This document shows positions 780-29,367 of a stretch of DNA of 64,000 nt, piece after piece (within the stretch, counting starts at the first letter, position 1; each line of letters opens with the position of its first letter). Position numbers and translations under genes: made by a program. The notes beneath the pieces were generated by a model, which made no database searches, was not told the DNA's origin, and saw only the letters and a list, made by a program, of their open reading frames with translations. The stretch is from Syntrophales bacterium (lineage in GTDB: Bacteria > Desulfobacterota > Syntrophia > Syntrophales > UBA4778), in NCBI GenBank assembly GCA_963665615.2, contig CAXXQE010000006.1:585165-649164 (forward strand), written 5' to 3'.

Positions 780-1916
780 TTAAGCCAAACTCTCCAGAAC
801 GAGTTCGGCAACGTCTTTCACCTTGATGCTTTCGTCCGCATTCATCGTCCGGACGCTGTCTTCGAGCATCGCAATGCAATACGGGCAGGCGGTCGAGAGC
901 ACAGACGCCTCCTTGCCCATGGCCTCTTCGACGCGGGTGTCGCTCAAGCGCTCGCCCTTGGCGCGCTCCATCCAGAGGCCACCACCACCACCGCCGCAGC
1001 ACACGCTTTGCTGGCGGGTCCGATCCATTTCAACAAATTCCACCCCCGGAATGGCCTTCAAAATCTCGCGCGGCGCATCGTAGATGCCGCTGTGCCGGCC
1101 GAGGTAGCAGGGATCGTGGAAGGTCACCTTCAGCCCCCCCAGATCTTTGGCGGGCAGGAGTTTCCCCTCTTTGATCCACTGAGAGAGAAGTTCGGAGAAG
1201 TGAATGACGTTATAGCCGTCACCGTACTCCTGCACAAAGGTACTGTAACAGTGCGGCGAGATCACAACGACGTTCTTGACGCCAAGTGCTTTGAAAATGG
1301 CGCGGTTGTTTTCCTTTAGGCGCTGGTAGAGATCCTCGTCGCCGACCTTGCGGGCACTCTCACCGCAGCAGTTGACGTTCGTCCCGGGCAGGCCCCAGCT
1401 CACACCCGCACGGTTCATGAGGTCGGCCGTCGCTTTGGCCACCCGCATGTTGCGCGGATCGTAGGAAACCGTACAGCAGGTGAAGTAGAGATAATCCATG
1501 CCGGGCTCATAAAGGGGATATTTGCCCTGGGCCCAGTCGTTGCGCTTCTCGACATCCCCGGCCCAGGGGTTGCCGCGCGCTGAAAGGCTTCCCACAAACG
1601 CCTTCAGGCTGGACGGCAAAATGCCGCCGCTGGCAAACACGCTCCGGATCGCCTTGACGATATCGATAATTTCAACGCCTCGGGGACAGCGGTCCACACA
1701 GAACTTACAGGTGGAACAACCCCACATATGCTCCTCGATCCCCTCGAAACCGAACTGCCCCATGCGGATCATCTTACGGATATTGAATTCCGTCAGGGGT
1801 CTCCAGGGGCAGGTGCCCGAACAGGTACCACACTGGTAACACTTCTTTAAAGCCTCACCGCCAGCCTCGACGATGACCTGGGCCATTTCGAGATAGGGAA
1901 CAACAATATGTGACAT
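780..1916 (-). CDS. HdrD/GlpC-like Fe-S oxidoreductase (two 4Fe-4S ferredoxin motifs plus two CCG cysteine-rich domains)
   Basis: ORF 780..1958. Cluster motifs CYQCGTCSGTCP and CSTCKFCVDRCP, then CCG-type motifs (NCCGESARK; VCCGGGGGG...CPYC). Preferred start is the ATG at 1916 (MSHIVVPYLE) with GAGGAG 7 nt upstream (rc of 1924-1929); 1958 is the alternative. The 21-nt gap to hdrA suggests an operon. Confidence 0.8.
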   Translation of the reverse strand: MSHIVVPYLEMAQVIVEAGGEALKKCYQCGTCSGTCPWRPLTEFNIRKMIRMGQFGFEGIEEHMWGCSTCKFCVDRCPRGVEIIDIVKAIRSVFASGGILPSSLKAFVGSLSARGNPWAGDVEKRNDWAQGKYPLYEPGMDYLYFTCCTVSYDPRNMRVAKATADLMNRAGVSWGLPGTNVNCCGESARKVGDEDLYQRLKENNRAIFKALGVKNVVVISPHCYSTFVQEYGDGYNVIHFSELLSQWIKEGKLLPAKDLGGLKVTFHDPCYLGRHSGIYDAPREILKAIPGVEFVEMDRTRQQSVCCGGGGGGLWMERAKGERLSDTRVEEAMGKEASVLSTACPYCIAMLEDSVRTMNADESIKVKDVAELVLESLA

Positions 1917-2396
1917 TTTATCGCTCCTCAACAGATTGACCGCAATAGCATGGATCATTCTGTATGATAGGGATTAAATTATTATAATACACTTCGATCG
2001 CCTTACAGACCACCCCGCGCGGGACTGACTTCTATGGCCTCCTGCCGGTCATGCGCAATGTATCGTGCGACTGGATGCCTGCGGCGACTTGTCGCAAAAC
2101 AGAAAATATCTAGGGGGATTTTCAGATATGCGGCAAGATCGAAAACGAATGCAGCGCGCCTGTGACACCAACCACTGAAAAGGCAGCTGATTATGCTCTA
2201 TATTCTATATATAGACGATAACTATTGCACAAGAATTTAATGCGTGTCAAGGTGAATTTTTGGCAATACACCCAATATTTTTAGCCGCTTTCGCAACATG
2301 CTGTTTTCCTGCTGGACGCTGTCTGAGCACAGAACGAACCATTGATCCAACACATGAAAACACAGCAAACAGACAAAAATGTAGTGGGAAGAACGA

Positions 2397-3188
2397 CTAC
2401 ATGATGCCGCGATACCAGCCGCCGTCAATCTGGATGGCCGCCCCCGTGATGTATCCGGCGCCTTCCGAGGCAAGATAGGCGACAAGAGAGGCGAATTCCT
2501 CAGGAGTTCCAAGGCGTTGCATGGGGATTTCCGACTCCCATCCCCCGATCACCGCCTCGGGCGTCGTTCCTTCTTTGGCCGCAATGACCTTGGCAAGATT
2601 GGTCACGCGATCGGTCATGGTGTATCCGGGACAAACGCTGTTGACGGTGATGTTATAAGGCGCCAGCTCCGTGGAGAGGGTCTTTGCAAACCCGATCACG
2701 CCGGAGCGCACGGTGTTCGAAAGGATCAGGCCGTCGATCGGCTGTTTGACCGAAATGGATGTCATATTGATGATCCGACCCCATTTCTTTTCCTTCATGA
2801 CAGGAACGGCCTCGCGGGTCATGGCGATCGTGCTCATCAGATTGAGTTGAACTCCTTTGAGCCACAACTCATCCGGGATTTCGAGAAACTTGGCAGAGGG
2901 AGGCCCGCCGGCATTGTTGACAAGGATGTCGATCGTACCGAAATGGGCGATGGCGGCCTGCATAAAGGAACTGGCCTGATCGAGATCTGAAACGTCCGCC
3001 GGCATGGCGAAGACCTCTGCGCCGGTTTCCTTGCGAATCAACGCCGCGGCCTCGGGCAGGCTCGGATCGTCCAGTGCCGTGATGGCTACCTTGGCCCCTT
3101 CCATCGCCAGCTGAAGCGCCACGGCACGCCCCAATCCCATACTTGCCCCGGAAATGACTGCCACTCGGCCTTTCAGTTTCAGATCCAT
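2397..3188 (-). CDS. Short-chain dehydrogenase/reductase family protein (FabG-like fold, atypical catalytic motif)
   Basis: ORF 2397..3212, with the start moved to MDLKLKGRVAVISGASMGLG (ATG 3188; AGGAGA 6 nt upstream). Gly-rich cofactor motif ISGASMGLG, NNAG motif, and ...ITVNSVCPG. The YxxxK position reads SNTVR (see findings). Confidence 0.85.
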   Translation of the reverse strand: MDLKLKGRVAVISGASMGLGRAVALQLAMEGAKVAITALDDPSLPEAAALIRKETGAEVFAMPADVSDLDQASSFMQAAIAHFGTIDILVNNAGGPPSAKFLEIPDELWLKGVQLNLMSTIAMTREAVPVMKEKKWGRIINMTSISVKQPIDGLILSNTVRSGVIGFAKTLSTELAPYNITVNSVCPGYTMTDRVTNLAKVIAAKEGTTPEAVIGGWESEIPMQRLGTPEEFASLVAYLASEGAGYITGAAIQIDGGWYRGIM

Positions 3189-3491
3189 ACACCGTCTCCT
3201 TTTTCTTTCCAATCATCCGAATGTACGAGCATGTAACAAATCCCCCCGCGCGAGTCAACAAATTGCTCTTGCCCCACGGGACGATTGAGGCACTTTGCAA
3301 AGCGTCTCCATCGCGAGATTAAGTTCTTCGACTTTTCCAGAGGCGCAGTAAAAAGCGCCGCGAGGAGGATATGGCGAAAGATGCTTTCAATTGACTCGCA
3401 AGCGAATAATGACAAACGCGATATTGCCACCCGTCAGGAAGGGTTTTAGAAGCGGGCGAGGTTTGACGCATCACAAATAGGGTATCCGACT

Positions 3492-4361
3492 CTATGATTT
3501 ATTCTTTGAGCTGAACCCATTCGGCATATTGAATCCGCCGACTTTCGAATCAAGTCGGTCCAGCAAACTATTCACCGCATAATCCAGATCTTTTACGTCC
3601 AGCTTGATTGCATCACGCATACACAAAGAAGCGCATCGACCGCATATCTTGCAAATCGAATAATCGATATTTGCCTTTCCATCTTTTATTGTGATGGCAC
3701 CGGTCAGGCATTTATCAGCACAAGAACCGCACCCGATGCAGTTCTCTTTATTCAGGGTGACACGGACCCCTTTAAGAGCTGCCCAGGAATCCCTTTCATC
3801 AAGCGGTTTTAACTTGATCGTATTCATCATAATGCAGCAGCATTGGCAACAAAAACATACCGTGATAAATTTTTTATTTGGGGCGACACCCCAAATCTCG
3901 TTATCTCCTTCAGCCCGTCCGATAAATGGAACAAGCCCCAGGGAAACAGCTTTATGCACATGCATGATTGCCGTTTCAACAGATACACTGGTGGCGACAG
4001 TCGGGGGCTCGTCCTCCGTTGCCTGCCCGATATGCAGGCACCCGATGTTTTTGTCATAGGCCCTGCAATCCCAGGCCTCTCTGCATGTGCAAGTTTTTGT
4101 AATGACGCGATAGGAGGAATGGCGGATGACTTCCTCCAGGATAAGCACTGGAAGCGGCACGTCGGCTGTTTTGACTTCGGCATTAATCGGAATATAAGTA
4201 ATATCCGTGACAAGCTCCGGAGAAAAGACCTTTGCAGGATCCAGCAGGGAAGCATCTTCGGTGGACTGTTCCTGTGGATTTCTCCCGATCGGCGTATACC
4301 ATTGCTTCCAATATTTAGCTAATTTCCCCAGGAAATGCTGATCTCTCAGATTTTCAGGCAT
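3492..4361 (-). CDS. Uncharacterised Cys-rich Fe-S protein, paralog A (N-terminal CxCR / CxCCxCCC module plus C-terminal 2x[4Fe-4S] ferredoxin domain)
   Basis: 289-aa ORF with motifs TCTCREAWDC...IGCLHIG, TVCFCCQCCC, CIGCGSCADKC and CKICGRCASLC. Clearly paralogous to 30798..31664, 7334..8152 and 6373..7206. Sits 24 nt downstream of the CooC-like gene. Confidence 0.8.
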   Translation of the reverse strand: MPENLRDQHFLGKLAKYWKQWYTPIGRNPQEQSTEDASLLDPAKVFSPELVTDITYIPINAEVKTADVPLPVLILEEVIRHSSYRVITKTCTCREAWDCRAYDKNIGCLHIGQATEDEPPTVATSVSVETAIMHVHKAVSLGLVPFIGRAEGDNEIWGVAPNKKFITVCFCCQCCCIMMNTIKLKPLDERDSWAALKGVRVTLNKENCIGCGSCADKCLTGAITIKDGKANIDYSICKICGRCASLCMRDAIKLDVKDLDYAVNSLLDRLDSKVGGFNMPNGFSSKNKS

Positions 4362-4385
4362 TTTCTTATCCCCTAAAATATTATT

Positions 4386-5150
4386 TCAAATCGTATTGGA
4401 AATTACTTTTTCGACCATTCCCGCCACAATTTTCAGGGCCGTGTTGTCCGGCGTCAAATGCAGAAGGCTCTCACCCATCAGATTCAGTGATGCGATCTCC
4501 TGATCCTGGGGAACCAGTCCCAACACGTCAAAGCCTATCTCCTGCGCCATCGTCTCGAACATTTCCTTCTGATCCGCGCCATATCTGCAACCAACGAGGT
4601 ACTGATGGGTGTATGGAAGAGACAGCTCGGTCACCATGGATTTTATTCTCCTGGCCGTATCAAAGCTGAGTCGGGATGGATCACAGGTCACAATCAGGGT
4701 ATCGGTGGGGCTGCCTGACTTTCTGCTGAAATGCTCAAGACCGGCGTCATGATCAATAATGACAATATCGTACATCTTGATCGTCTCAATCAAAATCGAC
4801 GTCAGGACAGAGTTTATTGCACAGTAGCAGCCTTCCCCCCTGGAACGCCCCATGACCAACAGATCGAATCCCTCGCCATGGGAGATGCTGTCCCAGACAG
4901 AAAACCGGAGTTTGGGCCCCTGTTCCCGCTCATCCAGTTCGTACTTTCTCTTGTCCATCAACTGGCCTACCGTCTTCTCAACGGTTACATCGAGTGTTTT
5001 TGACAGATTGGCATCCGGGTCCGCATCAATAATAAGCAGCCTGTCCTTCCGGTTCATTCTTAACAAGACAGATAAAAACATAGAGGCGGTGGTTGTCTTT
5101 CCCGATCCGCCTTTTCCTGAAAAGGATATCACTCTGACATTTTTATTCAT
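4386..5150 (-). CDS. CooC/AcsF-type P-loop NTPase (MinD/ParA superfamily; putative metallocentre maturation ATPase), copy 1
   Basis: Deviant Walker A FSGKGGSGKTT, IIDADPDANL, and a CxC metal-binding motif GEGCYCAINSVL as in CooC. About 254 aa, typical for the family. Confidence 0.85.
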   Translation of the reverse strand: MNKNVRVISFSGKGGSGKTTTASMFLSVLLRMNRKDRLLIIDADPDANLSKTLDVTVEKTVGQLMDKRKYELDEREQGPKLRFSVWDSISHGEGFDLLVMGRSRGEGCYCAINSVLTSILIETIKMYDIVIIDHDAGLEHFSRKSGSPTDTLIVTCDPSRLSFDTARRIKSMVTELSLPYTHQYLVGCRYGADQKEMFETMAQEIGFDVLGLVPQDQEIASLNLMGESLLHLTPDNTALKIVAGMVEKVISNTI

Positions 5151-5171
5151 GTTGAACTCTTCGTCCTGACA

Positions 5172-5831
5172 CTAAATGATTTCGTCTTTTTTGCTAAAGA
5201 CATTCAGAAACAATATATTTTCGGCAATGAGCGCAAAGCGTCTCTTGTCTTCGATTTCAAATAGCTCCGGCGGGATCAATTCGGTAAAGGTCCCCAGCTC
5301 TTCAACGTATTTCATCACGCCGCCCCCTACCGACACAATGACTTCCGTAGATTCGGGTGAAATAAAATAAGGAAACACAAAGTAGCATTTATTGAAGCAG
5401 CCCTGGAGCGTGTGCAGCAGATCGAGTTTCTTTTTAATATCCTGGGTCCCGATGAATGTCAGGACACACTCTTTGGCCGGGATGACATAATTGAGATTGC
5501 GGCACGCCGCCATGCCATCAAGAAACCCGATCTCGACCCACCCGTTATCCCTCGATTCTTCCAGGACCGTCCCGATAAAATCCAGCGGATAGCCGGTCTT
5601 TTCAACCAGCTCATTCAACGTCATCCAGTCATTGCCGATCAGATACTGCATGATGCCGGCCGGCGCAAAGCCCCTCTTCAGGCGAGGCTTCAGCTCTTTC
5701 AATATCGGCTGGATTGACACGACATCCGCAACGATTTCCGTTCCCGGGATCGTATAATCAGAATGGGAATAGTATCCCAGGCCAGAATAATAAGCCGTCG
5801 CAGCCGCACGCATAAGCCGGTCAAATGCCAT
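5172..5831 (-). CDS. Hypothetical protein (no recognisable family) inside the Fe-S/CooC operon
   Basis: ORF 5172..5957 begins at a TTG. The ATG at 5831 (MAFDRLMRAA...) is preceded by GAGAGAGGA. The start is uncertain and I see no motif I can name. Coding is supported by operon position and length. Confidence 0.55.
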   Translation of the reverse strand: MAFDRLMRAAATAYYSGLGYYSHSDYTIPGTEIVADVVSIQPILKELKPRLKRGFAPAGIMQYLIGNDWMTLNELVEKTGYPLDFIGTVLEESRDNGWVEIGFLDGMAACRNLNYVIPAKECVLTFIGTQDIKKKLDLLHTLQGCFNKCYFVFPYFISPESTEVIVSVGGGVMKYVEELGTFTELIPPELFEIEDKRRFALIAENILFLNVFSKKDEII

Positions 5832-5946
5832 GAATCCTCTCTCTTTTATATAAAAGCTATGTGGAAGGAAGAGGGCCTCCATCCCCATAGCCTGTTTGAT
5901 GTCATAACGACAGAATACGCTATTGTTCGCTACCCCTGACGATCCC

Positions 5947-6327
5947 TCATCCTTCAAAATCAGGGGTGACCTTGGTCCCGTCTTTCAGGGTCGCGCACAT
6001 GACCAGATCAGGCGCCTGATGAACCACGGCGCGAGGAACAGGCCGCTGTGCCTTCACCAGCCGGATGGCCTTCTTGGGACAGACTTCCACGCACTTGCCG
6101 CAGGCATTGCACCGCACCATGTACCAGGAGAAGACCCGGTGGGGGATGTCCCACAATTCCTTCGGCGCATCCGGCCCTGTCGTCTTCGGCGTCTCCTTGG
6201 CAACATAACCGATACAGTTGCTCCCGTTTTTGATGCAGGCATCCACGCACTTCAGGCAGCCATTGGCATTCGGACAAGCCTCATAATCAAAATAAATCCG
6301 ATGTCTCGGCGTAACATAACCAGACAT
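5947..6327 (-). CDS. 4Fe-4S ferredoxin-type protein
   Basis: 126 aa. Cys motifs CPNANGCLKCVDAC and CNACGKCVEVCP. GAGGAGG lies upstream of the ATG (rc of about 6333-6340). Confidence 0.8.
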   Translation of the reverse strand: MSGYVTPRHRIYFDYEACPNANGCLKCVDACIKNGSNCIGYVAKETPKTTGPDAPKELWDIPHRVFSWYMVRCNACGKCVEVCPKKAIRLVKAQRPVPRAVVHQAPDLVMCATLKDGTKVTPDFEG

Positions 6328-6372
6328 GTTAGACCTCCTCTTAGATGATTATATGATCAATAAATCTGTTGT

Positions 6373-7206
6373 CTACCATTCATCAGCCAGCGCCGGATAA
6401 GACAGCCGGTCAACAAGGCTGAGCGCCCCATTGGGACAGGCACGCCGGCACAGACCACAGCCGAAACATCTCATGATATTGACATTGACAACATTGCCCA
6501 GCACATCATAGGTCAGGCCGCCGAAGTTGCAACGCTTCATGCACGGGGCCGTCTTGCAACCCTGGCATTTGTCTCTGTCCACCTTGGCAACGTATTCACC
6601 TTTTCGATAGGTATTGCCGCCATAATACACCCGAACCTTTGCGCCCTCGCACGTCGATTCATTACAATGGCATAACGTCAAGGGCGCCGCGCCTTTTTCA
6701 CTCACGCCAACGTGGAAGATGGAATGAACCAGGCCCATCTTATCCACTTCCTTCTCGTAGTCGATGGCCTCCTGCTTGGTCAGGATCTTGCTGTCTTTTT
6801 CCCATGGTCTCTCTTCCAGCGTCTTGTCCATGGCCGTATCAAAGAACATGCAGCCGAGAAAATCAGTGTGCCCGATATACCGGCGGCAGCCGCAGTGCTG
6901 AAGAAACATTCTCTCCCCCGGAGCGATTTCGATGATTTTAATGGCATCTTCCAGCGGAATGACTTGGCCCGCGTGCTGATGCACCGCTTCAAAATGAGGG
7001 TTTAACGAAGGCCCCATCACCTTGATATCCGTCAGCATATCATCCAGCTGATCGCAACCGCCCCACTCATAGATATTTCGGTTGACCCCCATGAGGCCTT
7101 CAAAGCCTTCTTTGTGGCCCGGCTCAGCTAAAAGTTCCTTTCTGTAGTTATCCGGATTGAGGTACCATTTGGTACCGTTTCCGTATTCTACACAGTATCG
7201 ACACAT
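6373..7206 (-). CDS. Uncharacterised Cys-rich Fe-S protein, paralog D (divergent member of the same family)
   Basis: ORF 6373..7296. Preferred start is MCRYCVEYGNGTKWYLN (ATG 7206, AAGGAGG upstream). Motifs HCGCRRYIGHTDFLGCMFFD and LTLCHCNESTCEG, then CQGCKTAPCMKRC and CFGCGLCRRACP. Confidence 0.8.
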   Translation of the reverse strand: MCRYCVEYGNGTKWYLNPDNYRKELLAEPGHKEGFEGLMGVNRNIYEWGGCDQLDDMLTDIKVMGPSLNPHFEAVHQHAGQVIPLEDAIKIIEIAPGERMFLQHCGCRRYIGHTDFLGCMFFDTAMDKTLEERPWEKDSKILTKQEAIDYEKEVDKMGLVHSIFHVGVSEKGAAPLTLCHCNESTCEGAKVRVYYGGNTYRKGEYVAKVDRDKCQGCKTAPCMKRCNFGGLTYDVLGNVVNVNIMRCFGCGLCRRACPNGALSLVDRLSYPALADEW

Positions 7207-7333
7207 AACGACCTCCTTCATAAGGAACAGAGAGGCACATACGTTTCCGCAGCGCCTCTCTGTTATAATGAAACAAACTTTATGATTCCCGACCAAGATT
7301 GGAAGAAAATCTCATATCACGCTAGACTCTTCC

Positions 7334-8152
7334 TCAACTGTTTTTCACCGGCAGTTCCGAAACCCCTTTGATCCATTTAACAAGCTGCTGATACAAAACT
7401 TCTTCATCAACAATGTTCATCGTAACGGCTTTATTCGGGCAGACCTCTACACATTTTCCGCAACCGGAGCACGAGGGCCCATGCTTGGCCTTTCCGTCCA
7501 CGACGGAAATGTTTCCAAGGAAGCACGCCTCCACGCATGTACCACAACCGACGCATTTCTCCTCATCCATGACGATCGATAAACCGGGAAGTTTCTGATA
7601 AACCCCTTCCAGGGCTGGCCCCCGTACTTTCAGATCCGCTCGATATCCGCATTCATTATCGCAAAGGCAGATGAACATGAGATCTTTGAATCGTGTGCCG
7701 AACATAAGCGGATCAATCCAGGCGTGAGCGAAGCAAGCAACCAGTCCTGCCTCCGCTGCACGATCCAAATGCTTCAATGCCTCCTCAGTCGTGACAAACC
7801 GCCCATGAGACGGATGGAGACGCTTGGCAGCCGGACCCAAGCAAAAGCATCCGATATCCTGATACTTATCATTCCTGCCTTCTCTGCATAAGCATTTATC
7901 AAAAACGAATTTATCATCCAGTTCAGTTAAAAGCCTTTTAATGATCCTTCGGGGCATGGCTGACTTGCCTTGGGATTCAACCTCAATATTGAGGGGGATA
8001 TTACTGAGTTCCGTGTATGGCCTCATAAATATAGGATAAAATAACCATTTCCATACCGGGTGCTTATTGTATTTTTTTACGAATGGAATGACCCATGAAA
8101 AGAACATTAAAAACTTAACTAATGTCGGTTTCGACCAGCCATATTGTCCCAT
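7334..8152 (-). CDS. Uncharacterised Cys-rich Fe-S protein, paralog C (with a hydrophobic N-terminal segment)
   Basis: ORF 7334..8170. The ATG at 8152 (MGQYGWSK) has GGAGGA 6 nt upstream. Motifs KCLCREGRND...IGCFCLG, FICLCDNECG, CVGCGTCVEAC and CSGCGKCVEVCP. The N-terminal LVKFLMFFSWVIPFV could be a membrane anchor. Confidence 0.8.
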   Translation of the reverse strand: MGQYGWSKPTLVKFLMFFSWVIPFVKKYNKHPVWKWLFYPIFMRPYTELSNIPLNIEVESQGKSAMPRRIIKRLLTELDDKFVFDKCLCREGRNDKYQDIGCFCLGPAAKRLHPSHGRFVTTEEALKHLDRAAEAGLVACFAHAWIDPLMFGTRFKDLMFICLCDNECGYRADLKVRGPALEGVYQKLPGLSIVMDEEKCVGCGTCVEACFLGNISVVDGKAKHGPSCSGCGKCVEVCPNKAVTMNIVDEEVLYQQLVKWIKGVSELPVKNS

Positions 8153-8263
8153 AACTTTCCTCCATGACATCTCTTTATAATGGATATAGAAATGTTAATT
8201 TATTATATCCCTTGTTTTCAACATCAGCAATGTACAAAAGAAGCTATAAAATCCTGCGGTCCG

Positions 8264-8448: not shown

Positions 8449-8892
8449 TTACGTCGTTAATACTTTCCCCAGAGAAAAGCGGTTCCTTTTGATGCGCCAA
8501 CCCTTCTCAGTCTTGACGTAATCGATATTTTCATTTCCATAGGTCAAAACAACCTTATCGTTTACGACGTGCCCGACCAACATCAGCCATTCCACATAGG
8601 CGGTATTGCCACTCACATTGATCACCGGCGTCATAAACGCATGCATATAGAAATCTCCCATCTTGCATGCTTCATCGAGTATGCCTGCAATCTGGTCATG
8701 CCCCCTGGCTATCATGCCGGCAGCTTCGAATTCCCAGGTGCCATCTTCTACGTAAAATTCAGCAGCCTTTCGAGAATGCATTACTCTCCCGGCATATCCC
8801 CTATCTAGATAACTGGCGTAAATACTCTGTAGCTTTATGATTTCATTGATATCTTCTAATTTTTGTACTCGCGCCTCAAGTGTTTCAGTCAT
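8449..8892 (-). CDS. SnoaL-like / NTF2-fold family protein
   Basis: 147 aa. The N-terminal helix ...LEDINEIIKLQSIYASYLD and the overall cone-fold-like pattern are typical of SnoaL_4/NTF2-like proteins. This is a fold-level call only. Confidence 0.65.
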   Translation of the reverse strand: MTETLEARVQKLEDINEIIKLQSIYASYLDRGYAGRVMHSRKAAEFYVEDGTWEFEAAGMIARGHDQIAGILDEACKMGDFYMHAFMTPVINVSGNTAYVEWLMLVGHVVNDKVVLTYGNENIDYVKTEKGWRIKRNRFSLGKVLTT

Positions 8893-9030: not shown

Positions 9031-9975
9031 TTACATAAGCGGCATTAAGGCAAACAAGCCAAATCCCTTAAAGATGGAGATCAATGTAACCCCTAGTGCA
9101 ATGGCAAGCGCCGGTGGATCGATATGCGTATCAGCATGGACCAAAAAAACACCTGCCAGGAACTGACCCAGAAAAGCCGTAATGACACCAAAAAGGCCTC
9201 CCCAGAGCGCGCTCCCGCTGCCAATAGCGGCCAACGCCGCTACCAAGGTTATATGGTGGGTAACCGGAATCATGAGTCCGAACTGCAGGAAGACGAGGCT
9301 TACCAGCGAAAATCCGAAGCCGATAAATGCGCCGCCCCCCTTGGCCCCCATCATCATCGCAATGTAGCTTGAGACAAATCCGGCGGCGATGCCGATAAGC
9401 AGAAGTTCAAAAAAGCCTTGCTGCCAGGGGACCCAAACGCGATCATCTTTAAAGCTAAAGCGGCTCATTCCTTCAGGCACTTTCCCGAAAAGACCCGTCT
9501 TCCCGAAAACCCATCGAGCAATAAACGTGGTAATCGTTAACGCCATGGCCATATTATCTGTCCACGGCAGGCCCTTGATCTTGAACGGGATAAATGTCGC
9601 GAAGACCCACAGAATAGTCGCTGCCAGGACGCCAAAAAGGCCGCCAACGAGCAAGACATCCGGGCGCTTCAATCCCATTAGCGGTGTCGTGAGGTCGCGT
9701 CCTGACGCAATGTAACCCCTTCTGCCGGCATAAGCGGCCGCCGCGCAGGCGCCACCGTATATCATAAAGCCAGACCCATAACTGAGGCCTACATTGAACA
9801 GATATGCCGGGCTTCCCCCGGCAGCCATCGTTGCCGCGCCGGCGAACATAACGACGCCGACAACAGCAAAGACCGGAATGACTCCGAATGCAGTAGCAAA
9901 CATACCACCCGCAAAGGCGAGTAAAATATGGTGAATACTCATACCTCCAAGAGCTATCGACAGTTCATTGGCCAT
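9031..9975 (-). CDS. Polytopic membrane protein of unknown function
   Basis: ORF 9031..10002. The ATG at 9975 (MANELSIAL...) has AAGGAG 9 nt upstream. About 8-9 Gly/Ala-rich hydrophobic segments. No family recognised. Confidence 0.7.
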   Translation of the reverse strand: MANELSIALGGMSIHHILLAFAGGMFATAFGVIPVFAVVGVVMFAGAATMAAGGSPAYLFNVGLSYGSGFMIYGGACAAAAYAGRRGYIASGRDLTTPLMGLKRPDVLLVGGLFGVLAATILWVFATFIPFKIKGLPWTDNMAMALTITTFIARWVFGKTGLFGKVPEGMSRFSFKDDRVWVPWQQGFFELLLIGIAAGFVSSYIAMMMGAKGGGAFIGFGFSLVSLVFLQFGLMIPVTHHITLVAALAAIGSGSALWGGLFGVITAFLGQFLAGVFLVHADTHIDPPALAIALGVTLISIFKGFGLFALMPLM

Positions 9976-10129
9976 AAGATGCAACTCCTTAGTATTTCCC
10001 ACTATTATCTCGCTGATAATAGCGGGTTCTCTAAATTATTGAAGATAGATGCTGCCACTCCATAATAGTCAGTTGCTGATTCAATCGGCGTCGCTATTAT
10101 GGCTAAATGACTACCTTAGAGAATAATAG

Positions 10130-12577
10130 CTATCTTGTTATCCCTCTAAGATAAACCTCGCCCGTTTTCTTGTCGGTCTTGCCCATGATAAAGCGGGACA
10201 GGGCAGGAATGAAAACGAGCGCTCCAATCATGTTATAGAAGAACATAAACGAAAGCAGAACGCCCATGTCGGCCTGGAATTTAATTGGCGACCATGCCCA
10301 GGTGACAACGGCACTGGCCAGTGTGATTCCGACCAAGGCAACGACTTTCCCTGTAAAACGAAGGGACCGCTTGTAGGATTCCCCAAGCGGGAGGCCGTTT
10401 CTCATATGCATCAACATAACGCTAAGCAGATACAAAGCGTAATCGACACCGATCCCGACGCCCAGTGCAATAACCGGAAGGGTAGCCACCTTGACGCCGA
10501 TCCCTAATACCACCATGAGCGCCTCGCACAGGATCGAGGTAAGAACCAGCGGAATAATTGCTACCAGTACTGCTCGCCAGTTGCGGAATGTAATGAAGCA
10601 CAATGCAATAACTGCTAAATACACATAACCCATCATGATGCGGTTTTCCCGCTTGACCACGATGTTGGTGGCCGCATCAATTCCCGCAGTCCCCGCTGCA
10701 AGCAGAAACTGTCTGTCCGGCACAGAGTGCTTCTGTGCAAAGGCAGCGGACGTCTCCACCACGCTTGTCAGCGTATCTGCTTTATGATCCGTCAAATAAC
10801 AAATAACCGGCAGGACAGTCGCCTGGTTGTTGTAGAGGTCCGTATTGTTGGTGCGCGCCAGTTGCACACCATAGTTCAGTTCGTTCTGATTACGGGTGAG
10901 GGAGAACATTTTCGGATTCCCTTCATAGGATGCGGAAATCAGCACACGAGCAGCATCCGGCAGGGCGCTGACAACTTGAACCCCCGGCAGCTTTCGGAGT
11001 TCATGCACAAGGCGATCAACCTCTATAAGTGAATCGTACTTTACGCATCCCTCTCTCGGTGTTTTCACGATAACGGCAAACTGGTCGCTTGAGAGTCCAT
11101 AGTTGGCATTGACAAAAGCGTTATCCTTATTGTAGCGAGAATTGGGTCGAAGCTCGGGCGCCCCTGGATCCAGATCGCCGATTTTGACATGCTCGCCAAT
11201 GATCGAGCCGATCACGGCGAGGGCAACCAAGGCCACCAGTGCGCTTACGGCCCAACTCTTTTTTTCGGCAAAATGATTGAGAATATTCCAGACCGCGCCC
11301 GCCTTTTTACCTTCACTCTCTTCACTCTCCTGCCGTAAGCTCCTCTTGGCCGCTACAGGGCTTACGCCGACATAGGACAGAAGCACCGGCAAAAGAATCA
11401 GGTTCGTAAAGATGACGACGAAAACACCGACGCTGGCCGTCAATGCAAGATCCCGGATGACCGGAATCTCGATCCGCATGAGCACGGCAAATCCAACTGC
11501 CGCCGCAGAAAGCGCGGTCAGACCGGGGAGAAAAAGCCTGCGAAAAGTATATCGTGCCGCTACCAGTTTGTGTGTGCCGCGACCGACATCCTGCATGATA
11601 CCGTTCATCTTCTGAGTGCCGTGTGATACGGCAATGGCAAAAACGAGGAACGGCACCAGGATGGAGTAGGGATCCAGCTCAAAACCTAACATGGTAATGA
11701 TCCCGAGCTGCCAGAGCACCGCGAGTGCGGAACAGCAGATCAACAGAACCGTACTGCGCAGACACCGCGTGAAAATAAAAATGATGATGCCGGCAATGAG
11801 GATCGCGAACAGAAAGAAGGTCATCACCTGCTTCAATCCCGCAATCAGATCGCCAACGATTTTAGCAAATCCGGTGATGTGTATTTTGATGGCGCCTTTC
11901 GACTGAAGTTCATATTTATCGCGGATCTTGTCGAGCGTGTTAGAAAGTTTGCTGTAATCAAGCCGTTTTCCAGTTGTAAAATCTGTGTCCAGCAGGGACA
12001 CCAGCACCATGCTCGATTTGGCATTATCAGCAACAATACTGCCGATGATCGATGCACGGGCGACATTTAATTTAACCTGCTGCAAGCTCTCCGGGGAACC
12101 ATTGTAGCCGTCGCCTATGACAGGGCCGGCTTTAAAGCCTTCCTCGGTAACGATATTCCATCGTACACAGGGCGTCCAGAGCGACTTCATCCACGAGCGA
12201 TCAACGCCGGGAAGCAGAAATATCTCATCACTGACATGCTTGAGTGTCTCCAGGTAGGCGGTATCATAAATATCGCCTTTCGTGGTCTCCACCGCTATAC
12301 GCACGGTGTTGCCGAGGCCGCGCAATTCACTCTGGTTTGCAAGATAATTTTTGATGTAGGGGCTGCTTTGCGGAAGCATCTTCTCGAAGCTTGCATTCAG
12401 TGTGAGCTTCGTAGCTTGATATCCGAGAAAGAGCGTGACAAGCAGACATACGATGATCATAATGTGGCGATTATTAAATATTATTCGCTCAAGCAGAACA
12501 CCGGATGACGTGTCAAAATCTTTCACGTCCTTGACAACGGGCATTTGATCGATTTCTTCTTTTTTTGTAATAGCCAT
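10130..12577 (-). CDS. RND-superfamily (MMPL/HpnN-like, COG1033-type) transporter
   Basis: 815 aa. Two blocks of about 6 TM helices, each preceded by a large soluble loop. It sits in the conserved DUF1302-DUF1329-BNR-RND arrangement. Confidence 0.85.
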   Translation of the reverse strand: MAITKKEEIDQMPVVKDVKDFDTSSGVLLERIIFNNRHIMIIVCLLVTLFLGYQATKLTLNASFEKMLPQSSPYIKNYLANQSELRGLGNTVRIAVETTKGDIYDTAYLETLKHVSDEIFLLPGVDRSWMKSLWTPCVRWNIVTEEGFKAGPVIGDGYNGSPESLQQVKLNVARASIIGSIVADNAKSSMVLVSLLDTDFTTGKRLDYSKLSNTLDKIRDKYELQSKGAIKIHITGFAKIVGDLIAGLKQVMTFFLFAILIAGIIIFIFTRCLRSTVLLICCSALAVLWQLGIITMLGFELDPYSILVPFLVFAIAVSHGTQKMNGIMQDVGRGTHKLVAARYTFRRLFLPGLTALSAAAVGFAVLMRIEIPVIRDLALTASVGVFVVIFTNLILLPVLLSYVGVSPVAAKRSLRQESEESEGKKAGAVWNILNHFAEKKSWAVSALVALVALAVIGSIIGEHVKIGDLDPGAPELRPNSRYNKDNAFVNANYGLSSDQFAVIVKTPREGCVKYDSLIEVDRLVHELRKLPGVQVVSALPDAARVLISASYEGNPKMFSLTRNQNELNYGVQLARTNNTDLYNNQATVLPVICYLTDHKADTLTSVVETSAAFAQKHSVPDRQFLLAAGTAGIDAATNIVVKRENRIMMGYVYLAVIALCFITFRNWRAVLVAIIPLVLTSILCEALMVVLGIGVKVATLPVIALGVGIGVDYALYLLSVMLMHMRNGLPLGESYKRSLRFTGKVVALVGITLASAVVTWAWSPIKFQADMGVLLSFMFFYNMIGALVFIPALSRFIMGKTDKKTGEVYLRGITR

Positions 12578-12588
12578 TTTTCTCTCCG

Positions 12589-13731
12589 TTATTTCAACTT
12601 CTTAACTATATGACCCCCAAAGCCCGCAATGACGATAGTATTCCGGTCTGGTGAAGCAACTGCCGCTGCTCCGAACGGTTTGTCCATTTTAACTTTGTCA
12701 AATGCAGCGCCATTCTCTGAACTCAGGAGAACATCTCCACCCTGGCTCACCACAATGATCCTGCCGTCTTCTGTAACGGCCGCACCTACTAGCCCTGAGT
12801 CGACACTGGTATCGATTTTTTTCCAGCTTGCGCCCTTATTTGTGCTTCTGTATACATTACCGCGCATGCCGTATGCGGCCATGGCGCCGCCCTTCCCGGC
12901 GATCCCGAAGAAGGTCCCCTCGTAAGGCGTTTTAATCGGTCTGAACGTCGATGTCTTGCGATCCAGACGCATGAGCAGTCCACGTTCACCGGTAATATAA
13001 ATATCGCCATCAATGGATCGTACGGAATACATGTGCGGATGCTGCAATGGATCACTCACATGGTCAAGCCATGGCTCCCATGTCTTTCCGCCATCGGTTG
13101 TACGGAAAATAATTCCAAACGTTCCGACCAAAAAGCCGGCTTTTTCATTCTCAAAATAAACATCCAAAAACTCCTTGATCGGCGATACGTCCATCGGCAG
13201 ACCAAAAGCAGACATATCCGCGTTAAATTGATCAAGGTTCGCCGGTCCTGACACATTCATCGGCTTGTGCTCTTTATAGAATTTGGTGATCAGCTCGCCG
13301 ACATTGCGAAAATCAAGCTGCTTCACCCACGTTGCACCGGCATCAGTGCTGTGGAGAACGACACCATCATGTCCTACGGCCCAACCTTTCTGCGGCGTTG
13401 GAAAATGGACAGCCACGAGGTCGGCGCTGACCGGCACGGTGGCGCTGATCCAGGTCTTGCCCTTGTCGTCAGAATATAGAATGGTCCCATACTGGCCCAC
13501 GCTGATCAGACGCTTCCCGGCCATTACAATGCCGTTAAACAAAAGCTTTGTTGAAAGAATATCTTTATTAGCAGGAACATAAAGAACGTCAGTCTTGCCT
13601 AGTTCCGTGGTTTTCAAATTGCTGACGGGCGGTGGCGGGGTATTAAGATCTCCCTGGCCGTCGGCTGCCAAAGCGCTCTGCAAAGCGAAGCAAAGCAACA
13701 TCAACAGCGCACTCAATATTTTTTTGCACAT
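12589..13731 (-). CDS. BNR/Ycf48-like beta-propeller protein (secreted)
   Basis: Signal peptide MCKKILSALLMLLCFALQSALA. Repeated SxDxGxTW-type BNR motifs (SDDKGKTW, STDAGATW, TTDGGKTW, STNKGASW). Confidence 0.8.
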   Translation of the reverse strand: MCKKILSALLMLLCFALQSALAADGQGDLNTPPPPVSNLKTTELGKTDVLYVPANKDILSTKLLFNGIVMAGKRLISVGQYGTILYSDDKGKTWISATVPVSADLVAVHFPTPQKGWAVGHDGVVLHSTDAGATWVKQLDFRNVGELITKFYKEHKPMNVSGPANLDQFNADMSAFGLPMDVSPIKEFLDVYFENEKAGFLVGTFGIIFRTTDGGKTWEPWLDHVSDPLQHPHMYSVRSIDGDIYITGERGLLMRLDRKTSTFRPIKTPYEGTFFGIAGKGGAMAAYGMRGNVYRSTNKGASWKKIDTSVDSGLVGAAVTEDGRIIVVSQGGDVLLSSENGAAFDKVKMDKPFGAAAVASPDRNTIVIAGFGGHIVKKLK

Positions 13732-13815
13732 CTGTCTTCTCCCGATTTAAGCTCCCATTTTAGAAATATCATTTTTCCGGTAAAACATTATCATGCGGCA
13801 ATTTAATGATAGAAG

Positions 13816-13864
13816 GCAGGCACTTCCATTTTTGGCAAGCGAGCCAACGAATGAAAGTGCCTGC
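13816..13864 (-). terminator. Stem-loop between the DUF1329 remnant and the BNR gene (possible attenuator/terminator)
   Basis: GCAGGCACTT (13816-13825) pairs with AAGTGCCTGC (13855-13864). There is an inner TTGGC/GCCAA stem. No clean U-tract. Confidence 0.35.
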
Positions 13865-13905
13865 ACCTCTTTTTCTTGTACTCTTCTTATACTTCTAACA
13901 ACTCT

Positions 13906-15303
13906 TTAACGCAGGCCTTTACCCGCCAAGTTATCCGGGGACCAGAAGGCATCCGACTGCTCCGGCATCGCCTTGACATAGGCGCCTTTGAAGCAGTTGT
14001 TGTAAGCATGTGCCAACACCTGGCTCGGCAAATTGTGGACGAAGAATGTATACGAATACGGGGTCAGGATGTCATAGCACTGGAAGAAGTTCATGAAGTT
14101 CGCATGGAACATCTTCCCCTGGGCATCGTAGTTATCATTAGACAAAATGGACCAGGAATCTTCGTCAACATAGAATGTTCTTCGCGGATAGATGTGCCGT
14201 TTGCCCGGTCTCAGTCTGGCTTCAACGATCCAGACTCTGTGCAGCTCCCAACGATAGAGATCCGGATTCGCATAACCTTTATGCTGGTACATATTGGCTT
14301 TCTTGTCACCCAGGTAGAAGCTCATCCTGTAGGTGCTATAAGGAACGTACATTTCTTTTTTGCCGAGAAGATGGAAGGTGTGGCGTATTCTGTCGCCATT
14401 GAACCCGAACGTCTCGTCGTAAGTCATGTTCCCGTCGCCGTCCGTGTTGGGGGTGTCAAATGCGACTTCCGGCGCCAGTTTGACACGCCGCTGACCGGGC
14501 AGATACAGCCAGTTCGTCGGACCAGTGATGCCCTCGCGAATGGTGTGTTTCCATCCATGCCGCCTTCGCCGGCCTTGCGGACCGGGCCGTCAAAGCGCCA
14601 CTGGATGAGCCAATGAATGCCTTGCTTGGGGGCGGTCTTGTTTTGATCCTTGTAATACCATGGCAGTTTCGTTCCAGATTCTGATCGGATCCGATGTGGC
14701 ATAAACACCACCGTTGGAATCCACGATTTTCTGTCATAGTTTTTTGTTGAATCGCAACACCCCGATAGCGAATCACGTGATTCCACATGACTTCGTCGCC
14801 ACTCTTCGGAATCGGAAATGGAATGCCGCCCGCTTCACCCTTAATGGCCATTGCCGTCAGAGTAAGTCTCCACCGACGTGGCGGTTTTCTTCGTAGCTTC
14901 CAGCACATAATCAGGATAAGCGACGGTTCGGTGTGTCGGATAAACATCCATCCGGAAAACCAGGGTATTGTTTAAACAGGGCCTTGGCGCCGTCTGTCAG
15001 TTTATCGGCGTACTGGGCCATGTTTCTGGCGGGTTAATAGAAAACAAAGGCTTCTCATTTTTAAAGGGATCGGTATAGAAACCGGAACCCGGGACATAGT
15101 CGGCAGGCGCCTTGGGTGAGGGCCGCCTGTATAGGGCGGGATCGTTCCCTCTTTATGTTCCGGCTGCCTCTGCACCAAACAGGGTTAGATTTTTCCCCAA
15201 CTGCGCCGCTTCTTCAGGACTTACCTTGGCAAGCACCAGCCCTGAGAAGCAGGTCATCATGGATGACTGCGGACAGCGCGATAATTTTCATGAATTTTGA
15301 CAT
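13906..15303 (-). pseudogene. DUF1329 (LolA-like outer-membrane lipoprotein-sorting family) gene disrupted by several frameshifts
   Basis: Family-typical segments are spread over all three reverse frames:
- Start MSKFMKIIALSAV (ATG 15303, GGAGG upstream), followed by an early stop.
- ...AGNKEGTIPPYTGG only after a frame change.
- GGIPFPIPKSGDEVMWNHVIRYRG (frame of ORF 14456..14947).
- LPWYYKDQNKTAPKQGIHWLIQWRFDGP (ORF 14424..14786).
- GITGPTNWLYLPGQRRVKLAPEVAFDTPNTDGDGNMTYDETFGF... to the stop (ORF 13906..14427). Confidence 0.75.
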
Positions 15304-15324
15304 TATATTTCTACCTCCTTCCTA

Positions 15325-16998
15325 CTAAAAGTTCGTTTTAAAGGTGAAACTGACCCAGTCGCGGTCATAGAGGTATGCATTCAGTCCACCTCTTGCGGCT
15401 GATATGCCGCCCGACGCATCCGTATCGTGATCGCCATAATAAGTATTGTACGACAGCGTAAAATAATACTTCTGCCTGACTTCCGCGCTCACGCCAATGC
15501 TTGCGCTCCCATTGCCTTCGGCATCGCCGCCGTTGAGCGCCGAGTTGCCGAACAGGCCGCGGCTAAAGCTCACGGGCATTGGACAAATTCACGGCCGGCC
15601 AGACATTGAACCAGGTCGGTGTAAATGAAATGGCGATCCCCCATGGCATCTACGTGTCGTCTTGTTAATGCGCCATGGGCCCGCGTCGTTACCCTGGTAA
15701 TAGGCCTCTCCATCGCTTACGCGCTGTACATGGGCATGACGTGAATTCCAGAATGCCCGTTGACGATTCCCAGAGAGTGCGGTGGGCCCGCCAATCTGGA
15801 AGAAGTTGAGGGTCGCCGTGTGAATGTCACCACGGGTACCCGCGGTCTCTCCCTTACCGGGACGGGTTCCTGGGAACGACTATAAGATCACAATTAAAAG
15901 GCTGGTTAGAACGGTAAGCGTATTCCAATCCGATACTGATGCCGCCAAGAGCAAAAGCCGGCGCTTACGCCATAGAGCTTGATATCGTCAGGATAAACAA
16001 AAAAGTATTGAAGGTTGGTCGTGTCAAGATAGATCTGGGGCAGTTGATCGGTGAAGTTACGGTAATAGAATCCCAACTTACCCGATATCGAGTCCAGAAA
16101 CTCCGGTCTCCAGTTAAGTGCGAAACCATAGTCATGCGTTCCATCCGGTTCAATATCACTCTCATGTCTAAAAATAGCGCCCGCCAGCAAAGACTCGCCA
16201 CCCTTGTGAAAAAAGTCAAGGCCTCCCATGTAGCTGCCGCCGTCAGGAACCCGGGCCGGCTGGAACTGGAGAAATTGCTGAAACTGAATACCTACACTGT
16301 TGCTAAGGGTTGCCTGCAAGGACAAAGCGGCTCGCGGCATGAAAAGTTCCTTGACTTCCGACCCAGGTATGGACAACGCCTTGGCGATATCGACGGGGAA
16401 CTGCCCATAAGACGATAGCGTTAATGAATCCTAAAAAGGACTCACCCCAGTACTGCGTGTGGCGCCCCAATTTAAAGTTCACCGGTACCGAGCCGATATC
16501 AACGGATCCGAATACAAACGCGTCAAGAATTTCTCCATAAGCCCCCCGCTCATAATTCTTAACACGCTGGCTAAGGCCAAGATCCTGTGTGCCTTGGTCA
16601 GTAAGGTGGTTCGAAGTCGCCAGGGAGGTGTTATCCATCGGATCCCGATAGCGTGCATCATACCAGCCCGAAGCACTGATCCTGAATCCCTGCTTTTCTT
16701 TGTAGACAAGATCGAACTCCGACAGGATGTCCAGTCGGTTCGTGACAATGCCCATACTGCGGCCAAAATTACGATCGCCGTCATCGTAATTCGGGCTCTT
16801 CAAGAGTGCGTCATCGGGACTGGCAACACGAATACCCAAATTGTACTTTAGTGTGTTGTCCCAGCGCATTTTAATATTTTCGTTATCCGTTTTAAGTTCC
16901 ATTGCCTGAGCCACGTTGCATATCCCGACAAGGAATACAAGCGCCGTCGCAATGAAGCCGAAGCACCACATTCTACGCTTTCTCATCGCATTTTCCAT
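15325..16998 (-). pseudogene. DUF1302 (outer-membrane beta-barrel family) gene disrupted by several frameshifts
   Basis: N-terminal piece with signal peptide MENAMRKRRMWCFGFIATALVFLVGICNVAQA and ...LRWDNTLKYNLGIR (ORF 16303..17046). Middle piece PGSEVKELFMP... (15906..16376). C-terminal piece ending ...DRDWVSFTFKTNF (15325..15579). The stretch 15580-15905 needs further frame changes. Confidence 0.75.
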
Positions 16999-17796
16999 GT
17001 GCCCTCCAAATTTGATTTTGCAGAGATCTTTATTCGCATATCGCATTTAAACCTAGTGTGCTCTCTTGCATTTTCTTAATGTGTAAACTGAAGTAACGCC
17101 AAACGAGCAAGAGAATTGTTCCCGGCTCTTGTTCTGTTCAGCCCGCGCTGTTTTGTTTCGATCACAAAACAAACCCCTTGAAGATTAACCCCATGTTTAA
17201 TCTTCAAAAATTATTACGACCCTCCTTTCTAACTAAATTTATTAGTTCCCCCGATTCAGTGAACCGTCGATGCCCCCGGCCAGGTAAAGTCAGCGTTCCG
17301 TGTTGCGGACATCGGTCATATCGCCGTCATAAACCGCGCCGGGCTCTTCAAGATGACAGTGCCTATCCAACAAGTTAGGGGAATGTGCTTCAAGTCACTG
17401 GCACCTTGAAGCGCAGGTTATCTTTGCGCATCAGGTACGACATACGGTTTTTGCCTCAGATGTCGGCCTGTTGTTTGAGCTCCGGCTACATATGAGGCCG
17501 CCATTACTCTCATCGCTGTCGTGAAGAATGATATGGATCTTCGCCTGCAGGTCTGCATTGCCTTGCATATGTCAAGATACTGGCCTTTTCTGACAGGCAT
17601 AATAACCGCGCTGCGAGAAACCGAAAACACCCCACATAACCAAAATAGCAAATGCCGTTTCCTGCTCCTGAGGAAACGGAAAAATCATCTTGGGTCGGTC
17701 ATTGAGCCATAATGTCGATGTACATTATTGCGGGCACCCCACCCGCATGGTCAGCCCTTAGATTTTGGGCGTTAGATTTTATGACGATTTTAGATA

Positions 17797-27602: not shown

Positions 27603-27651
27603 GGTTTATTTGGGTTAGAGAAGACTTGATATAAGAATAAGGAGCTATCGC

Positions 27652-28464: not shown

Positions 28465-28503
28465 GTAAGATTTGACAAAAAGAGTTTACTTGAGGAATAG
28501 CAC

Positions 28504-29301: not shown

Positions 29302-29367
29302 TGTCCGACTTTGTAAATATTCAACGACGGCTTAAAGGCTGTATATACGGTTGGAAGGAGAATTTCC

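Follow-up and report, generated by a model that had tools for sequence, protein, structure and literature searches.

To our knowledge, nickel enzymes number only about ten kinds, and the one established role of the P-loop ATPase CooC is to mature CO dehydrogenase (CODH). Double-cubane proteins, which belong to the HgdAB/BCR superfamily, hold an [8Fe-9S] cluster on six cysteines and reduce small unsaturated molecules with a dedicated ATPase. Here, a 64,000-nt window (the whole stretch of DNA analysed) of the Syntrophales bacterium assembly GCA_963665615.2 (contig CAXXQE010000006.1, positions 585,165-649,164, forward strand) was explored, in which three paralogous Cys-rich Fe-S proteins (A, C, and D) are encoded next to a ferredoxin, a 219-residue protein (hyp219), and a CooC-like ATPase (CooC#1). 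This cassette brings together a CooC-clade ATPase and a Cys-rich Fe-S protein of novel fold, with no CODH seen, a combination that would point either to a new nickel redox enzyme or to a new role for CooC.

The system that most resembles it in the literature is that of IsrA, a putative isoprene reductase of 901 residues whose operon also encodes a 350-residue "ferredoxin" (Kronen et al. 2023, PMC10134865). Both proteins share an unannotated N-terminal region of ~270 residues with six topologically close cysteines, the IsrA one exhibiting C180/C182, C254/C256, and an Fe-S motif at residues 289-300 (PMC10134865). In the isr operon, HypA is encoded twice and HypB once, with no hydrogenase gene, and among 988 IsrA homologs a HypA neighbour is found in 73% and a HypB neighbour in 56% (PMC10134865). 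IsrA is still described as biochemically uncharacterised in a 2026 preprint, its function and nickel content being putative.

A four-gene core conserved across phyla

ORF calling displays six co-directional open reading frames (ORFs) on the minus strand of the window, in the order C, D, ferredoxin, hyp219, CooC#1, and A, with intergenic gaps of 127, 45, 115, 21, and 24 nt; these six genes, a fourth paralog (B), and a relic all lie where the initial annotation had placed them. The conserved unit is a four-gene core formed by D (6373-7206 (-), 277 aa), which is the core subunit and whose ATG start is fixed by the family-wide MCRYC N-terminus, a TTG at 7296 being spurious, the ferredoxin (5947-6327 (-), 126 aa), hyp219 (5172-5831 (-), 219 aa, a length equal to that of its homologs), and CooC#1, a CooC-clade P-loop ATPase (4386-5150 (-), 254 aa). 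Thus, what had been taken for an operon built from three paralogs does contain A, C, and D, but only D belongs to the core. A (3492-4361 (-), 289 aa), representative of the A-type, is an optional partner subunit that is absent from many cassettes, while C (7334-8170 (-), 278 aa, or 272 aa with an alternative ATG at 8152) is a lineage-specific extra paralog; the family search for C returned only its own cluster (P0001), from this genome alone apart from the relic, and C is missing from the related cassette L001. Motif scans inside the cassette revealed neither sigma-54 or sigma-70 promoters nor terminators above chance.

Metagenome contigs with D relatives, which come from varied environments and lineages, exhibit the order D-type gene (~279 aa), ferredoxin (123-141 aa), hyp219 (218-224 aa), and CooC (~254 aa). 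At locus L002 the stop and start codons overlap among the ferredoxin, hyp219, and CooC genes, which suggests translational coupling. When one genome was scanned for each GTDB species, 160 loci were obtained, 80 of which were retrieved and screened with hidden Markov models (HMMs) of the cassette proteins; synteny counts were restricted to loci with enough flanking sequence, and CooC was scored within 5 kb of D. Among the 28 species with at least 46% identity to D, which span Syntrophaceae, Desulfobacteraceae, Neomoorella sulfitireducens, Oscillospiraceae, Lachnospiraceae, Phascolarctobacterium, and Dehalococcoidia, the ferredoxin gene lies directly downstream of D at 27/27 ortholog loci, and hyp219 and CooC accompany it at 23/25 and 17/21, respectively. 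Five loci with 35-38% identity, from Jord-, Hod-, and Promethearchaeota and one unclassified archaeon, carry all three partners (5/5 for each of ferredoxin, hyp219, and CooC). The 47 species with 33% identity or less show ferredoxin at 17/43 loci, hyp219 at 0/41, and CooC at 0/34, so that linkage to CooC is a trait of the D-ortholog subfamily and not of the whole superfamily.

The synteny with CooC-like genes in other genomes that the initial annotation had proposed as a check is, therefore, found both in the close orthologs and in the Asgard tier. The functional link that it drew between the Cys-rich family and CooC is upheld by this conservation across phyla, within the D-ortholog subfamily, but not by the argument originally offered, namely a pairing seen twice within 30 kb. 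The second CooC-like gene of the window (CooC#2, 29368-30135 (+)) belongs to another clade, its product being 35% identical to CooC#1 and 30-36% identical to any cassette CooC, and it closes a convergent HGD-D/CdhC-like operon.

CooC#1 displays a deviant Walker A motif (GKGGSGKT, residues 12-19) and Pfam matches to CbiA and AAA_31. Its best relative in the PDB is CooC1 of Carboxydothermus hydrogenoformans (3kje, E = 1.7e-17), followed by MinD (3e-6), and it shares with CooC1 the P-loop ATPase clade, the length of 254 residues, the deviant Walker A, and an aligned CxC motif (GEGCYCAINS in CooC#1 with QCYCRENS in 3kje). GCYC is present in 32/32 cassette-linked CooC sequences, the corresponding motif of CooC#2 being GCFC. 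Identities to CooC#1 are 52-93% for the cassette CooCs of Desulfobacterota and Firmicutes, 36-40% for those of Asgard archaea, and ~32% for those of Dehalococcoidia, and these CooCs fall in an ortholog group of their own, apart from CooC1. As judged from these sequence comparisons, CooC#1 is a genuine CooC-clade protein.

Like CooC1, the cassette CooC adjoins a possible client in the form of a Cys-rich Fe-S protein. In contrast to the CooC1/CODH system, the cassette has no CODH client, and its six-cysteine (Cys6) site sits in a module of ~200 residues instead of the Cys5His C-cluster site. Neither a CODH/prismane domain nor a hydrogenase gene was seen in the scanned ORFs of the window or among the Pfam-annotated neighbours of loci L001-L008, and in none of these does the CooC gene adjoin a Ni-CODH (cooS/acsA) client. 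No CODH was seen at the gut Firmicute and Asgard loci either, these having been screened by the cassette, Ni-chaperone, p100 (see below), and SnoaL profiles only, plus Pfam for a few L015 and L019 neighbours, with no CODH model run.

A cysteine-rich module outside named families

A, C, and D each consist of an N-terminal module of ~200 residues and a C-terminal 2x[4Fe-4S] domain scoring above the Pfam cut-offs. Pairwise BLASTP aligns A with C at E = 1e-27 and A with D, over the full length, at E = 2e-5, and A is 38% identical to B; the paralogy of A-D is, therefore, real, as proposed in the initial annotation, and both Cys motifs and the C-terminal domain are as quoted there. In a 41-sequence alignment, the invariant module residues are, in A numbering, C91, C93, R94, C108, C169, C171, and C176, giving the Cys6 pattern CxCR-x14-C ... 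CxC-x4-C, and the eight cysteines of the 2x[4Fe-4S] domain are likewise invariant. The second motif of A is a poly-Cys stretch (CFCCQCCC; CxCCxCCC as the A-type pattern), while C combines CLCR..C and CLCDNEC with its 2x[4Fe-4S] domain. D starts with an N-terminal CxxC (C2, C5), followed by C105, C107, R108, C119, C179, C181, C186, and the 2x[4Fe-4S] domain, whose first ferredoxin motif is a CxxCx4Cx3C variant. The extra CxxC of the D-type sits within MCRYCVEYGxGTKWYLNP, as defined by the invariant columns of 37 D-type sequences, and the D C-terminus shows a conserved ...PALxDxW. C opens with the hydrophobic stretch LVKFLMFFSWVIPFV, similar ones being observed in some A-type relatives (P0010 and P0011); this N-terminus, not present in D, may be a membrane-associated helix.

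The N-terminal module belongs to no named family and has no solved fold, in line with the initial annotation, which could not place it. Neither Pfam nor NCBIfam gave a match to the module, only the ferredoxin domain being scored, and searches against the PDB, by single-sequence phmmer and by profile, returned only ferredoxin domains or a repeat artefact. The AF2/AlphaFold model of A (pLDDT 79, pTM 0.82, core blocks at 68-94) found matches in the PDB by Foldseek that are confined to the C-terminal di-cluster domain, with none for the N-terminal module. No likeness of the module to Ni-CODH or to hybrid-cluster (prismane) proteins was found outside the ferredoxin domain by Pfam, NCBIfam, PDB sequence, or Foldseek searches. 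The best PDB sequence matches of the Cys-rich proteins are the polyferredoxins MvhB and FwdF; these and the C-terminal domain of HdrA resemble the C-terminal 55-60 residues of A-D, a canonical 2x[4Fe-4S] domain, but they cover only the C-terminal fifth of these proteins. The 126-aa ferredoxin, like A, C, and D, shows the two motifs of such a domain (CxxCxxCxxxC(P), the first being a variant in D and in the ferredoxin), together with a Pfam Fer4 score above cut-off.

An exhaustive HMM search with the N-terminal module recovered a superfamily of no fewer than 150 representative clusters (formed at 50% identity) with E < 5e-15, each as one long matched stretch and most of them 260-300 aa long. 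Profile matches to designer PPR proteins were discarded as an artefact, because a 23-residue helix ("EEAxxxxxExxKxGLV", profile positions 143-165) was matched eight times, the eight weak repeats being summed with no significant single domain. Low-stringency match counts for the superfamily are, consequently, unreliable, and since the 1303 matches obtained at E up to 1e-3 are possibly inflated by this artefact, only the top 150 were relied on. The superfamily includes fusions, for example to an NAD-epimerase domain in P0079, and a long form of 330-430 aa with an additional N-terminal winged-helix-like region.

Long paralogs also occur at a second D-type locus, L091 5616-14987 (contig ctg33611l, ENA sample ERZ21831019, from which L001 also derives). 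There, a FAD amine-oxidase-like gene is followed by D, the ferredoxin, and four tandem long paralogs (359-366 aa), each comprising the winged-helix region, the Cys6 module, and the 2x[4Fe-4S] domain, with DUF1302 and DUF1329 outer-membrane genes upstream and with neither hyp219 nor CooC, a striking multiplication of paralogs. A second D-type locus of the genome to which the window belongs, P0037, has P0225 as a near-identical relative.

The spacing of the cysteines brings this superfamily close to IsrA. Both exhibit an unannotated Cys6 region, two CxC motifs ~74 residues apart, and a [4Fe-4S] motif ~35 residues later, and the long paralog at L091 10396-11493, with C182/C184, C253/C255, and Fer4 at 289, nearly reproduces the IsrA numbering. 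Paralog A is spaced likewise (91/93 and 169/171, 78 residues apart, then 208, plus C108 and C176), and the CxC motifs of the long paralogs are 67-74 residues apart. The distance from the second CxC to the [4Fe-4S] motif is 34-37 residues in A-C and in 9/10 long paralogs, and 40 in the one at L091 13887-14987; the 35-68 residues obtained for the D-type come from a search pattern that leaves its variant first motif (CxxCx4Cx3C) uncounted. IsrA and the present system also have in common nickel chaperones nearby and no hydrogenase. Considering these features, the Cys6 module seems related to the N-terminal region of IsrA. As a difference, IsrA carries the module fused to a GltD/NfnB-like FAD/NAD(P)H domain; A-D, at 277-289 aa, stand alone, consist of just the module and Fer4, and lack the N-terminal winged-helix region. 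The chaperone here is CooC as against HypA/HypB for IsrA, and the isr operon is not reported to hold hyp219 or the 126-aa ferredoxin. An IsrA sequence was not found in the retrieved loci, even with relaxed thresholds; a long paralog used as tblastn query against plasmids matched only further stand-alone members of the superfamily, and a scan of viral contigs gave only ferredoxin-domain matches.

The remaining core proteins are also distinctive. The ferredoxin has eight invariant cysteines (C18, C24, C27, C31 and C73, C76, C79, C83); its first motif is atypical (Cx5CxxCx3C) and ~40 residues are inserted between the two motifs, Asgard ferredoxins being shorter. Hyp219 forms a small family (32 clusters, nearly all of 219-223 aa) with no Pfam or NCBIfam match and no invariant Cys or His. 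Its AF2 model (pLDDT 88) displays an alpha/beta protein with a winged helix at the centre, and this ArsR/SmtB-like element was the only part matched in the PDB (TM-score ~0.26), with no match for the whole protein. Comparison by hhalign of hyp219 with the long paralogs, over their N-terminal winged-helix region, gave a weak 58-column winged-helix alignment, at 14% probability. Hyp219 is probably a structural or assembly subunit.

A putative nickel-dependent oxidoreductase and its alternatives

Further nickel-related genes surround the cassette in other lineages. At L002 and L012, a DUF8180 protein and CooT are encoded downstream of CooC. In the clusters labelled as gut-type Bacillota, which include metagenome contigs (L005-L007) and nine GTDB loci (L016-L024), the order is HypA, A-type, p100, SnoaL-like, MFS, D, ferredoxin, hyp219, and CooC, and most of them end with a 222-aa CobW/HypB-family GTPase after CooC. 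The A-type gene thus follows HypA in these clusters, while it follows CooC in the window and in L001; HypA and HypB are absent from the window, where CooC stands in their place. The presence of HypA, the HypB-like GTPase of the CobW family, and CooT in the same clusters elsewhere supports nickel-dependent maturation, and makes more plausible the NTP-dependent metal insertion suggested in the initial annotation, the metal itself being deduced to be nickel from these genes.

Other genes that recur beside the cassette encode Zn- and Fe-type alcohol dehydrogenases (ADH), AOR, an OYE-type ene-reductase, SDR, SnoaL-like, and SCP2 proteins, MMPL/MFS transporters, FAD amine-oxidase/phytoene-desaturase-like proteins, ETF, and HdrD-like CCG proteins. 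Such neighbours suggest a hydrophobic, non-CoA-activated class of substrate.

These observations would fit a multi-subunit, probably nickel-dependent Fe-S oxidoreductase in which CooC supplies the metal to the Cys-rich site of D, and perhaps to that of A, a reading to which we give roughly even chances. The N-terminal module of D (and of A, B, and C) would fold around the six invariant cysteines, D adding its N-terminal CxxC, and would hold a non-standard metal cluster. The CooC-type ATPase would use ATP to deliver nickel to this site, on the model of CooC1 and the C-cluster of CODH, with HypA, the HypB-like GTPase, or CooT assisting in other lineages, while the 126-aa ferredoxin and the C-terminal di-cluster domains would carry electrons to it. 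The holoenzyme would then convert a hydrophobic non-activated substrate by a redox reaction, most plausibly by reducing it, and its products or precursors might be handled by the recurrent neighbours (ADH, AOR, OYE-type, SDR, SnoaL-like, SCP2, MMPL/MFS). The presence of nickel, the subunit that receives it, the way in which electrons flow, and the class of substrate are what we infer here. That the cassette represents an undescribed nickel-iron-sulfur enzyme family, with a CooC-matured heterometal cluster in the Cys6/Cys8 module that reduces hydrophobic substrates (e.g., by hydrogenating unactivated C=C bonds or in a reaction of similar difficulty), is a more tentative proposal, possible but short of likely. 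Double-cubane proteins provide a parallel, to be taken as a lead only, in combining a six-Cys site for a non-standard cluster with a dedicated ATPase; they differ in having the HGD-D fold and family and an HgdC-type instead of a CooC-type ATPase, and no sequence relationship with them is expected.

Several aspects weigh against a nickel enzyme matured by CooC. Nickel is suggested by accessory genes only, and the six or eight cysteines would suit ordinary or non-cubane Fe-S clusters just as well. In the tier with 33% identity or less, a Pfam scan found no nickel chaperone among 149 neighbouring proteins, and the existence of such distant D-like genes without CooC, hyp219, or a nickel chaperone implies that the Cys6 module is not always in need of a linked chaperone. 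Moreover, 4/21 close D orthologs with adequate flanks have no CooC within 5 kb, no catalytic partner is constant across lineages, and the putative kinship to IsrA is a match of motif spacing.

In a competing explanation, the Cys-rich proteins and the ferredoxin would form only an electron wire, similar to a polyferredoxin, that serves neighbouring flavoenzymes and oxidoreductases, such as reductases of the OYE type, AOR, ETF, HdrD-like proteins, or FAD proteins resembling amine oxidases and phytoene desaturases; their additional cysteines would bind one more Fe-S cluster, and CooC would have a part in assembling such clusters instead of inserting nickel. The 2x[4Fe-4S] domains are the only recognisable ones, with MvhB and FwdF as best PDB matches; OYE-like, ETF, CCG/HdrD-like, and FAD amine-oxidase-like genes recur beside the cassette; L091 combines D, the ferredoxin, and four long paralogs with a FAD protein in the absence of CooC; distant members of the superfamily occur without nickel chaperones; and an NUBPL/Mrp-type Fe-S carrier follows the L019 cluster. 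Nonetheless, no flavoenzyme partner is constant, whereas D, the ferredoxin, hyp219, and CooC are, three nickel-specific types of chaperone (CooC; HypA with the HypB-like GTPase; CooT) have been recruited across lineages, and a simple cluster carrier would need neither the invariant Arg that follows the first CxC nor a ~200-aa module of novel fold, so that we regard such a wire as unlikely, if still a serious competitor. Nickel handling, as indicated by the co-occurrence of HypA, HypB-like proteins, and CooT, also argues against the CooC-like ATPase being an ATP-driven electron donor of the nitrogenase Fe-protein/BchL/CfbC type, which would bridge an Fe-S cluster through the CxC motifs of its dimer and feed electrons of low potential into the Cys6 cluster of D to drive a difficult reduction. 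CooC#1 shares the SIMIBI fold family with such donors, two CxC per dimer would provide four cysteines, the tight four-gene unit looks like a stoichiometric coupling, and ATP-dependent HGD/BCR-type activases are encoded nearby in the genome. However, its best solved relative is CooC1 and not NifH, and its matches to the NifH-family models (Fer4_NifH, DPOR BchL, NifH, CfbC) are partial and well below cut-offs, the Pfam ones covering only the N-terminal P-loop; we know of no CooC-clade protein that carries a redox cluster, and a donor role appears quite improbable.

The least credible explanation, to which we attach very little weight, is that CooC matures a CODH/acetyl-CoA synthase (CODH/ACS) encoded elsewhere and that the Cys-rich genes are unrelated neighbours. 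It can draw on the Wood-Ljungdahl methyl-branch genes of the window (MTHFR-like, 44506-46059, and formate-tetrahydrofolate ligase, 47144-49060), which indicate that CODH/ACS is probably encoded elsewhere in the genome. Against this, the same CooC clade accompanies D, the ferredoxin, and hyp219 at 22/26 adequately flanked loci from bacterial and archaeal phyla, and no CODH was seen beside the gut Firmicute and Asgard cassettes within the profiles run there.

Companion genes, surroundings, and implications

A companion unit, formed by a Zn-type ADH (31874-33124 (-), 416 aa) upstream of the intact A-type paralog B (30798-31664 (-), 288 aa) and by p100 (30455-30757 (-), 100 aa), lies 22 kb from the cassette. 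The small protein p100, for which Pfam gives no match, accompanies A-type paralogs and is 66% identical to its L001 homolog and 26-29% identical to those of L005, L019, and L022; its gene comes right after that of the A-type protein in L005-L007 and in L016-L024 (nine loci), the two being a conserved pair. In L001, a similar ADH gene (412 aa) and a p100 gene lie directly upstream of the D cassette, and the two loci of the window thus look like one system split in two. A sigma-54-like -24/-12 element (TGGCAC-N5-TTGG, 31721-31736 (-)) is observed 57 nt upstream of B.

The relic, a frameshifted C-terminal part of a C-type paralog (34190-34394 (-)), translates at 34190-34291(-) to MNIENEEALCRQLVQWIKGVSALPVRDS, to be compared with MNIVDEEVLYQQLVKWIKGVSELPVKNS at the C-terminus of C. 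Directly upstream of it lies a FAD amine-oxidase/phytoene-desaturase-like gene (34435-35871 (-)). In L091, the D-type gene is immediately preceded by one for a FAD protein that is 22% identical to the product of 34435-35871, and the presence of such genes beside the relic and in L091 hints at a recurring FAD partner. A second sigma-54-like element (TGGTAC-N5-TTGC, 35894-35909 (-)) is found 23 nt upstream of the FAD gene. Overall, sigma-54-like sites are not above chance (4 found vs 2.4 expected), while sigma-54 activators flank the system in the window, L002, and L015.

The plus-strand operon to which B is convergent (25168-30135 (+)) encodes two HGD-D proteins, a BcrAD/BadFG-type activase, and a CdhC-like protein, and ends with CooC#2, so that it does carry its own CooC-like gene, as initially annotated; a sigma-54 activator (21522-24662 (-)) lies near it. 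The operon is unusual: its 265-aa CdhC-like protein matches only the N-terminal domain of CdhC (acetyl-CoA synthase beta), and this protein and a private CooC stand beside an ATP-dependent enzyme of HGD/BCR type.

Upstream of C, a SnoaL-like (NTF2-fold) protein is encoded at 8449-8892 (-) (Pfam SnoaL_4, E = 1.7e-17), and SnoaL-like genes also recur in the gut-type clusters L005-L007 and L016-L024. Further upstream on the same strand, a set resembling hydrophobic-substrate transport genes occupies 9031-17046, comprising an unannotated membrane protein (9031-10002, 323 aa), an MMPL/RND-type transporter (10130-12577), a BNR/YCF48-like protein (12589-13731), and a truncated DUF1302 gene (16303-17046, 247 aa) that matches only positions 5-182 of the 541-position profile. 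Downstream of A, the same strand carries at 780-3212 (-) an SDR gene (2397-3212) and an HdrD-like gene for a protein with Fer4_8 and two CCG domains (780-1958), and the L008 cassette is likewise flanked by genes for a CCG protein, SDRs, and ETF alpha/beta. The HdrD-like/CCG, SDR, and ETF neighbours are possible electron-input partners.

The cassette is a real and non-trivial variant of a barely characterised kind of system, that of chaperone-linked Cys6 Fe-S proteins. Its hosts include human and animal gut Firmicutes, sulfate-reducing and syntrophic Desulfobacterota, Dehalococcoidia, and Asgard archaea. If the reading as a CooC-matured nickel oxidoreductase is true, the cassette would add a new entry among nickel enzymes and provide the first client of CooC other than CODH. 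Given its seeming kinship to IsrA, solving one of the two would inform the other, with a bearing on the anaerobic saturation or transformation of unactivated hydrocarbons. A cultured bacterium, Neomoorella sulfitireducens SLA38, carries the cassette at locus L015, and many gut Oscillospiraceae have it too, which makes its function directly testable and relevant to both gut and subsurface metabolism.

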